A stretch of DNA of 62,917 nt, the filler included, from Candidatus Woesearchaeota archaeon (GTDB lineage Archaea; Nanobdellota; Nanobdellia; Pacearchaeales; UBA284): assembly GCA_964354405.1 (NCBI GenBank). It is 6 parts of 6 records of this genome, joined end to end, with 100 filler letters (N's around TTAATTAATTAA, not from the genome) between each part and the next. Parts side by side here need not be neighbours in the genome. Positions count along the whole stretch, not along the records: positions 1 to 18,997 come from CAYGZP010000005.1; 5 more parts are not named here. One strand, written 5' to 3'. Made by a program: the position numbers and the translations under genes. Below are positions 18,318 through 18,943 of this stretch, in pieces. Positions within the stretch are counted from its first letter, which is position 1; the number at the start of each line of letters is the position of its first letter. The notes beneath the pieces are model-generated. The model had not been told where the DNA came from. It saw only the letters and a program-made list of their open reading frames with translations, and ran no database searches.

Positions 18318-18943
18318 CAATTATGTTACATCAAGAAACTTGATGGTTAATCGTTTCCGATTAACTCTGAATGTCGCCATTCAGTTCGGACTATATTTTA
18401 ATAATTATATAATAATCATTTCAAGCGTATAGTCTCTGAGGATTCTAGAATTACTTTTTCTTTTTTTGGATTAAACTCCAAACAATGTAACAAACTACCA
18501 TTTCTACAACTAATATCGCTATAAGAATTTGAGGTGGAGTGTATCTATACCATATACTTCCTTGTTGATATAGGTTTTTCAAAACAAATGTCAATCCAAC
18601 TGAAACAAACCCAAAAATCACTGAAACAACAGTTTTAAGAGTTGTTAGTTTGAAATTCATACTTATCTTAGTAATTTATTATATTTAAATTCTAGTCTTT
18701 CCTGCTGATTGTCTGCAATTTGAAATTATCACTGTTTTTGTAGTTTTTCTACCATTGTAGTTTCTTTTTTAAAAAAGAAACCCAGTATCCAAATATTCAC
18801 AGATTTTCCAGCATTTAGCTTGATTTTCTTCATTTGATTTAACTTTTCAGTCCGTAACTTTCTTTCTTTTTTGTTCAACTATTTACTTGCTATAACTCTT
18901 GAAGCATCATCTAAAAGATGATGTAAGGCAATCGTAATCTTTT
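18318..18943 (-). mobile_element. Group I intron in 23S rRNA at L1931 (IB-like)
   Basis: 5' exon ends in U (CTTAAGGT), terminal omega-G, P1 TAAGGT/GCCTTA, P AATGCTGGAAA, Q AATCAGCAGG, R TCAGAGACTATA, S AAATATAGTCC. Confidence 0.92.
18451..18660 (-). CDS. Intron-encoded 69-aa two-TM protein in the P6 loop
   Basis: Intact ATG-TAA ORF in rRNA sense between Q and R elements; two hydrophobic helices, basic tail. Confidence 0.65.
   Translation of the reverse strand: MNFKLTTLKTVVSVIFGFVSVGLTFVLKNLYQQGSIWYRYTPPQILIAILVVEMVVCYIVWSLIQKKKK

Follow-up and report, generated by a model that had tools for sequence, protein, structure and literature searches.

Group I intron at position 1931 of 23S rRNA

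The first part of the window, which is the whole 62,917-nucleotide stretch of DNA that was analysed, spans positions 1–18997 and corresponds to contig C5, from a genome of 834 kb. The minus strand at the end of this contig carries an archaeal 23S rRNA gene, which is interrupted by an insertion that itself holds a protein-coding region. The features of the locus, all on the minus strand and listed from 5′ exon to 3′ exon, are as follows.

18944..18997, minus strand: 23S rRNA 5′ exon fragment, helix 69 region; ends at the contig end; 5 of 54 positions differ from the C2 allele
18318..18943, minus strand: group I intron (IB4-like), LSU 1931; 626 nt, final base G
18924..18938, minus strand: internal guide sequence; P1 strand 18924–18929, predicted P10 strand 18933–18938 (pairing read from sequence)
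18809..18823, minus strand: P3 5′ strand (18818–18823) and P element / P4 5′ strand (18809–18813)
18703..18715, minus strand: P5 3′ strand and Q element / P4 3′ strand
18688..18695, minus strand: P6 5′ arm, abutting the TATA box
18682..18689, minus strand: TATA box spanning −29 to −22 relative to the ATG; predicted to drive a leaderless mRNA
18451..18660, minus strand: open reading frame (ORF) of 69 amino acids with two transmembrane helices, MNFK family; stop codon overlaps the P6 3′ arm
18445..18452, minus strand: P6 3′ arm
18389..18434, minus strand: R element / P7 5′ strand (18430–18434), P3 3′ strand (18421–18426), P8, and S element / P7 3′ strand (18389–18393)
18329..18384, minus strand: P9, P9.1 and P9.2 hairpins
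17394..18317, minus strand: 23S rRNA 3′ exon, 95% identity to the same-genus genome G001

The exon sequences ...CTTAAGGT and AGCGTAAT... flank the insertion and are contiguous in intron-less relatives. Because these insert-free relatives join both exon ends directly, the limits of the insertion can be placed at 18318–18943, a site that we take to be immediately after U1931 in Escherichia coli numbering. P1 is formed by exon UAAGGU and intron GCCUUA with a U-G pair at the splice site, and P3, P4, P6, P7 and the P9 hairpins are all present, as is the terminal G at position 18318. Among 103 introns at position 1931, the terminal G is found in 102 and the splice-site U-G pair in 91. Nucleotides of the two P3 strands pair in 95% of cases versus 78% with shuffled partners (103 introns), and those of P7 in 98% versus 91% (106 introns), in comparisons that ignore relatedness. 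Compensatory changes occur in both stems, the P3/P7 pseudoknot core is accompanied by P, Q, R and S elements, and the 3′ hairpins of the intron fold with a z score of −4.3.

An earlier sequence-only reading of this DNA had described a 626-nt L1931 insertion with a U-G P1 pair, P/Q/R/S elements and an omega-G. The exon junction, the covariation and the terminal G confirm from sequence that it is a group I intron with an intact, covarying core, which is likely to be self-splicing. In the Infernal check that the same reading had suggested, Rfam model RF00028 matches positions 18367–18494 with an E value of 1.1e-4, restricted to the portion of the intron 3′ of the P6 insert, but the 26.9 bits fall below the gathering score of 50. 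The intron probably belongs to subgroup IB4, given that IB4 introns alone are listed for LSU/1931 in Table 1 of PMC6125680.

Named records bearing the same kind of intron carry the titles Pacearchaeota, Woesearchaeota or Nanoarchaeota. No public sequencing run contains more than 18% of the sequence words of the intron, and four runs compared at 80% likeness yielded solely pieces from other organisms, such that junction-spanning contigs are uninformative on splicing here.

A promoter and a small membrane-protein gene in the P6 loop

The P6 loop contains an intact ORF whose protein has hydrophobic segments at residues 8–26 and 45–63. A TATA-like box lies directly 3′ of the P6 5′ arm and starts 29 nucleotides ahead of the ATG. 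The ORF, its two hydrophobic helices and the TATA-like box had been noted in the sequence-only reading and are borne out. An ORF of at least 69 amino acids was obtained in none of 2,000 dinucleotide shuffles of the loop. AlphaFold models the protein as a helical hairpin (pLDDT 76, pTM 0.46), for which Foldseek returned no fold match in the PDB. There is no match above the Pfam cut-off, nor any in PHROGs, NCBIfam or PADLOC. Atlas feature scores for the protein reach at most 0.86 and serve as leads only. No longer, fused form of the protein is present among 8,000 candidates scored, which constitutes weak evidence.

The intron holds no ORF that could be a partner of this gene. Likewise, TnpA and TnpB are absent from the intron (18318–18943) and from the 93 cargo proteins scanned. 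No oligo-T terminator follows the cargo stop codon, and thus the 3′ end of the mRNA is not explained by such an element.

Several origins for the ORF were considered and rejected. A decayed endonuclease, which the earlier reading had named as an outcome that would undo its proposal, is contradicted by the lack of LAGLIDADG, GIY-YIG, HNH or PD-(D/E)xK Pfam matches and by the predicted helical hairpin. A viral origin finds no support, as viral contigs hold no relative of the ORF and the four viral pattern matches are endonuclease-bearing introns in phage genes. Capture of AATT-ended restriction fragments was also discarded, because the ORF contains an internal AATT and therefore a complete digest could not be its source. 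Viral contigs include group I introns with endonuclease-like ORFs inside apparent phage capsid genes (L375–L378).

Two probable alleles of the 1931 site in one genome assembly

Contig C5 holds just 54 nucleotides of the 23S 5′ exon. The 5′ part of a 23S gene is found on contig C2 of the same genome, and the end of that contig is taken up by another, distinct L1931 group I intron (G000:C2:1-218, L039), whose P6 is empty. The assembly breaks between two alleles of the L1931 site, the cargo intron of C5 and the empty intron of C2. The helix 69 variant of C2 is that of two same-genus genomes (G001 and G002) that are intron-less at 1931. C5 carries five differences within the last 24 bases of its 5′ exon, as seen in other lineages, and its 3′ exon is host-like. 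The gene neighbourhood of its valyl-tRNA synthetase is the one also seen in G001 and G002. The simplest reading of these sequences is that two alleles exist in one population, and that the cargo allele may have been acquired recently with short co-conversion of the exon.

One alternative, which is independent of the mechanism discussed below, is that the intron is real but derives from another archaeon present alongside the host, and that assembly fused it to this 23S gene. This explanation would account for the start of C5 only 54 nucleotides before the intron, for the different same-site intron and same-genus helix 69 variant at the end of C2, and for the near absence of the MNFK protein family from the family of the host (one weak match in 23 genomes). 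However, C5 carries the sole valyl-tRNA synthetase match of that length in the genome, positioned beside the 23S gene as in G001 and G002, and its 3′ exon resembles that of the host. Moreover, two alleles with short exon co-conversion are the trace expected of recent homing. We consider an erroneous host assignment rather unlikely.

Other features near this locus were also observed. Directly downstream of the 23S gene (window 13251–17223, minus strand) are four unannotated ORFs of 146, 309, 506 and 363 amino acids. By eye, the 309-residue product resembles a helix-hairpin-helix DNA glycosylase and the 506-residue product has a radical-SAM-like cysteine motif, and neither has a Pfam match above the cut-off. 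An ATPase gene at window positions 19997–22624 (plus strand) has an apparent intein that, by eye, carries an endonuclease domain.

The intron-borne ORF belongs to a mostly free-standing family

The 69-amino-acid protein is a member of an unnamed DPANN family that we call MNFK after its pattern ‘MNFK...WSLIQK’. A single-protein search revealed one homologue, and a profile built on 26 members uncovered 48 proteins. Among 251 genomes of the order, 45 contain a match to this profile, including 43 of the 206 that represent one family. Of 35 genome-borne ORFs inspected, 32 reside outside introns and three inside, including the one at 18451–18660; this answers the question of whether relatives of the ORF are confined to introns. 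An rRNA or tRNA gene lies within the fetched flank of 10 of the 32 free copies, a count for which there is no background rate for comparison. When every locus is considered, introns carry 15 of the 47 members. The family thus recurs in 14 introns besides the one described here, which goes against the other outcome that the earlier reading had named as undoing its proposal, lack of conservation in orthologous introns.

Members of the family have conserved ends and a hypervariable middle, and 46 of 47 possess two hydrophobic helices. At least two cysteines occur in the hypervariable loop of 21 of the 32 free copies. Pairs of intron-borne members exhibit dN/dS values of roughly 0.27–0.58, with dS near saturation in most. 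More broadly, dN/dS is below 1 in all 15 intron–intron pairs that have a dS value; one non-MNFK pair gives 0.74.

Intron-borne copies are grouped together in none of 200 bootstrap trees and are interleaved with free copies, in a tree that is poorly resolved. Because this protein tree is built on few columns and its clustering is no greater than with shuffled labels (157 of 500), captures are not countable from it. A chromosomal MNFK gene located far from rRNA (L359:1400-1750) is flanked by degenerate P6 and P7 sequence, and these flanks suggest that it is likely to be cargo that escaped from an intron.

Unrelated genes occupy the same ribozyme loop

L1931 introns were chosen by their exon junction alone, which yielded 52 introns from 51 of 401 genomes. 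Non-LAGLIDADG cargo is present in 16 of these introns (three with MNFK genes), LAGLIDADG genes or remnants in 13, and the remaining 23, among them one row first mis-parsed as cargo, are empty. A wider sample was drawn from metagenomes by means of a pattern that reproduces the P6 arm of cargo introns, which matched 120 stretches from 31 of 64 parts. The 348 loci in total comprise 182 distinct cores, of which 88 were flagged as carrying cargo. Seven rows were dropped, namely two LAGLIDADG remnants (L131 and L317), three that are mis-parsed or do not fit (L212, L257 and L279) and two with cargo solely in P9 (L093 and L242), which leaves 81 P6 ORFs. This wide sample is biased, as a pattern derived from the cargo P6 arm skews both the share of introns with cargo and the letters at the junctions, and the arm letters alone favour a stop codon in one frame.

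The wide sample includes 80 distinct P6 ORFs that form 50 clusters, 43 of them singletons, with a median length of 73 amino acids. Thirteen of the P6 ORFs are MNFK members, and six encode a 167–174-amino-acid protein with a PD...D-x-K motif and no Pfam match. Only one of 76 P6 ORFs scanned passes the Pfam cut-off (HIT), and 56 of the 80 proteins lack a hydrophobic helix. Another two families of cargo were traced in 151 genomes, one in 10 and the other in 14 of them, and their genes lie mostly outside group I introns. The sequence-only reading had suggested that the ribozyme is a vehicle for passenger cargo, and this view is strongly supported and proves far more general than proposed, with dozens of unrelated ORFs at the same spot.

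Other loops and other sites also carry genes. The 17 ORFs found in P8 or P9 include three NYN, three ParE, one PIN and one DUF2283 representatives, with small partner ORFs adjoining the ParE and PIN genes. Introns that share the same P6 arm are found in three further places, namely a 16S site, a 23S site lying eight bases upstream and the 5′ region of 23S, and cargo is present in most of them. Ten long loops have no ORF of at least 45 amino acids, and some of these are mis-parses or decayed genes.

Additional observations were made among these loci. Six P8 loops (L115, L196, L227, L238, L249 and L336) hold two-gene modules of the toxin–antitoxin type (PIN, ParE or DUF2283 with small partners), although the parse of L238 is less secure. 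ARAGORN calls a tRNA-Asp gene on the opposite strand of another P8 (L232:1754-1828), and makes no call for tRNA-like stretches in the P8 of L229 and the P9 of L191 and L231. Two L1931 introns (L068 and L101) have an endonuclease-like ORF of 219–251 amino acids unlike the LAGLIDADG type common at this site. An insertion in the 23S 5′ half (L439:1380-1755 and L444:1860-1385) is delimited by short paired arms and shows no group I motifs that could be seen, and its gene, with its own promoter-like leader, belongs to the same family as some P6 cargo.

Cargo genes share a compact layout and a promoter signature

Of 86 loops, 79 are occupied over half or more of their length by a sense-strand ORF, compared with seven for antisense ORFs and 1.8 expected from shuffles. 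The stop codon of 46 of 81 cargo ORFs directly precedes the P6 3′ arm, and there is near-zero spare DNA around cargo in P6 loops. The 5′ leaders vary in length from about 27 to 80 nucleotides.

Alignment of 75 cargo leaders by their start codons reveals T in 85–88% at −29 to −27 and A in 84–92% at −26, −24 and −22, a purine-rich stretch just upstream of the TATA and T at −1 in 75%. We take this signature to be a BRE and TATA box at the spacing established for leaderless archaeal mRNAs. A TATA-like word between −31 and −21 precedes 51 of 81 cargo ORFs, whereas in the host genome 78 of 482 long ORFs have one there. These patterns make it likely that cargo is expressed from its own promoter. Thus, an earlier proposal that expression is tied to rRNA synthesis is unsupported and is not needed. 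Leader elements of the introns recur ahead of free-standing genes, and therefore the captured unit is likely to be a gene with its native promoter.

One particular leader, consisting of a palindrome and BRE-TATA followed by an ATG 24–25 nucleotides on, is present in roughly 16 introns and at variable chromosomal sites (for example, G000:C1:222380-222460, C2:18200-18260, L005, L098 and L224). This element might function as an operator for accessory genes, and one of its copies precedes a retroelement-like module that G002 lacks.

Closely related ribozymes carry different cargo

The ribozyme closest to the intron at 18318–18943 (L239, 301 of 326 positions identical, 92%) carries an unrelated gene with a different leader, and the next closest (L337, 278 of 329, 85%) has an empty P6. 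In contrast, introns L094 and L122 also bear MNFK genes, although their ribozymes are merely 72–75% identical to this one. Introns L033 and L132 have in common a leader up to the ATG and an NYN gene in P8, yet their P6 ORFs are unrelated. The ribozyme tree is too weakly resolved for swaps to be counted, but the sequence comparisons indicate that cargo is likely to have been swapped by recombination in the conserved core.

A proposed splicing-protected slot for accessory genes

We propose that the P6 loop of L1931 introns is probably a slot, protected by splicing, that promoter–gene units enter through microhomology, in which they are trimmed, and from which they are exchanged by recombination with the aid of nucleases of sister introns. 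The small membrane-protein gene with its own predicted promoter is likely to be one member of an intron lineage with such exchangeable accessory-gene slots. This interpretation is based on the intact core, the intact ORF, the unrelated ORFs at the same position, the free-standing relatives and the near-identical ribozymes with different or no cargo.

Specifically, the intron would be spliced from the pre-23S rRNA, leaving the insert costless to the ribosome, and the TATA box at −29 would drive a separate transcript of the gene, a leaderless mRNA. Cargo derived from free-standing promoter–gene units might join the AT-rich P6 loop by microhomology, followed by deletional trimming until promoter and stop codon touch the helix arms. 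Homologous recombination, for which either the ribozyme core or the rRNA exons could provide the arms, might then move cargo between introns and species, and would be helped by breaks that putative LAGLIDADG or PD-(D/E)xK-type nucleases of sister introns introduce. The protein itself most likely forms a helical hairpin that displays a surface loop and has conserved cytoplasmic ends. It may act in a cell-surface interaction with a virus, host or neighbour rather than as a toxin, a role that is a guess drawn from anatomy alone, namely the variable and often cysteine-paired loop.

The strongest competing mechanism is integron-like capture, wherein a site-specific enzyme places promoter–gene units in the middle of the P6 hairpin and perhaps duplicates a TA, thereby restoring the stop codon. 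The very high diversity of cargo (43 singletons among 80 ORFs) and the precise 3′ junction in 46 of 81 loops are both compatible with such an enzyme. In addition, some empty loops resemble the filled form with one shared TA, the L033/L132 pair swaps exactly from ATG to stop, and introns have the leader of hairpin and promoter in common with variable sites on the chromosome. However, inspection by eye of 81 junctions revealed no terminal inverted repeats or attC-like sites at cargo ends, the 5′ leaders are of unequal length, and the introns scanned contain no recombinase gene. The same tight packing is evident in P8, in P9 and in a chromosomal insertion whose last stop codon sits in the flank, which fits deletional trimming instead. 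On balance, integron-like capture at P6 appears unlikely. A more general statement, that in Pacearchaeota-type archaea an enzyme exchanges promoter–gene cassettes at precise points of group I loops and that conserved rRNA flanks spread them between species, is doubtful, though slightly less so. The cassette types under enzyme capture would comprise surface peptides, nucleases, toxin–antitoxin pairs and tRNAs.

The remaining explanations concern the function of the cargo. The sequence-only reading raised the idea of a toxin-like addiction module, in which the membrane peptide is a toxin that keeps an endonuclease-less intron in the population. Its small size, hydrophobicity and basic tail would suit a toxin, and ParE, PIN and DUF2283 modules do reside in P8 of sister introns. 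Nevertheless, the idea is unsupported for the 69-amino-acid ORF and very unlikely, as the intron includes no antitoxin ORF and 32 of 35 inspected genome-borne family members lie outside introns. The hypervariable loop, which in 21 of 32 free copies has at least two cysteines, the absence of a hydrophobic helix from 56 of 80 P6 cargo proteins and the persistence of empty sister introns also argue against it. Alternatively, AT-rich loops might be a neutral landing pad that gathers random gene fragments that are neither expressed nor selected. A splicing intron would indeed hide inserts from selection on rRNA, and a few loops do hold broken ORFs. This possibility is even harder to credit when faced with sense-strand ORFs in 79 of 86 loops, promoters at a fixed spacing, dN/dS below 1 in every intron–intron pair with a dS value and almost no spare DNA.

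Comparison with known systems

The textbook view of group I introns is that they either carry a homing endonuclease or are empty. Within one archaeal order, however, the same loop contains unrelated accessory genes as often as it does LAGLIDADG genes, and their exchange is apparently quick. If the slot model is correct, the most conserved locus of the genome is a route of gene flow between reduced genomes. The model also suggests, in a form open to testing, how introns that lack an endonuclease persist and how DPANN archaea vary their surface and defence genes. The comparison also provides a list of about 50 families of small proteins concealed within rRNA annotations, and natural ribozymes that tolerate putative expression units of 0.2–0.7 kb in P6 and P8.

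Integron cassettes are compact single-gene units with a huge diversity of small unknown proteins and with toxin–antitoxin pairs, as is the case for the P6 and P8 slots. Unlike in integrons, no attC site was seen at the cargo ends and no integrase in the introns scanned, the cargo brings its own predicted promoter, and each loop holds one unit rather than an array. We found no account of a swappable accessory-gene slot in rRNA introns in the open-access literature, to which the search extended.

Self-splicing introns that host a non-endonuclease gene are also known from fungal mitochondria, where rps3, aminotransferase or N-acetyltransferase genes are described (PMC8393795). Those cases involve a few recurrent organelle genes, in contrast to roughly 50 self-promoted accessory families in archaeal rRNA. 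IStrons likewise use a group I intron to render inserted genes harmless to the host gene, but their cargo is an IS605 transposase that moves the element (PMC3984707), whereas most cargo introns here have no mobility enzyme and reside at fixed rRNA sites. The rRNA insertion sequences of CPR bacteria similarly involve frequent rRNA introns in small-genome symbionts, including at position 1931 (PMC11270868). According to that report, homing endonucleases make up 90–99% of annotated ORFs in CPR inserts, and a few group I introns encode the non-nuclease protein 23S_rRNA_IVP. The accessible portions of the report do not describe a swappable slot, and NYN and ParE do not appear in its supplement.

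The nearest precedent is the set of IB4 LSU/1931 introns of DPANN and other archaea (PMC6125680), which have the same site, host groups, group I core and P6 insertions. ORFs with a Pfam match are reported there in 21 of 39 introns, all of them LAGLIDADG. Relative to this record, in which archaeal L1931 introns are known with solely LAGLIDADG ORFs, what is new is a probable slot with varied cargo, wherein non-endonuclease genes are as common as LAGLIDADG genes, carry their own promoter signature and turn over between closely related ribozymes.
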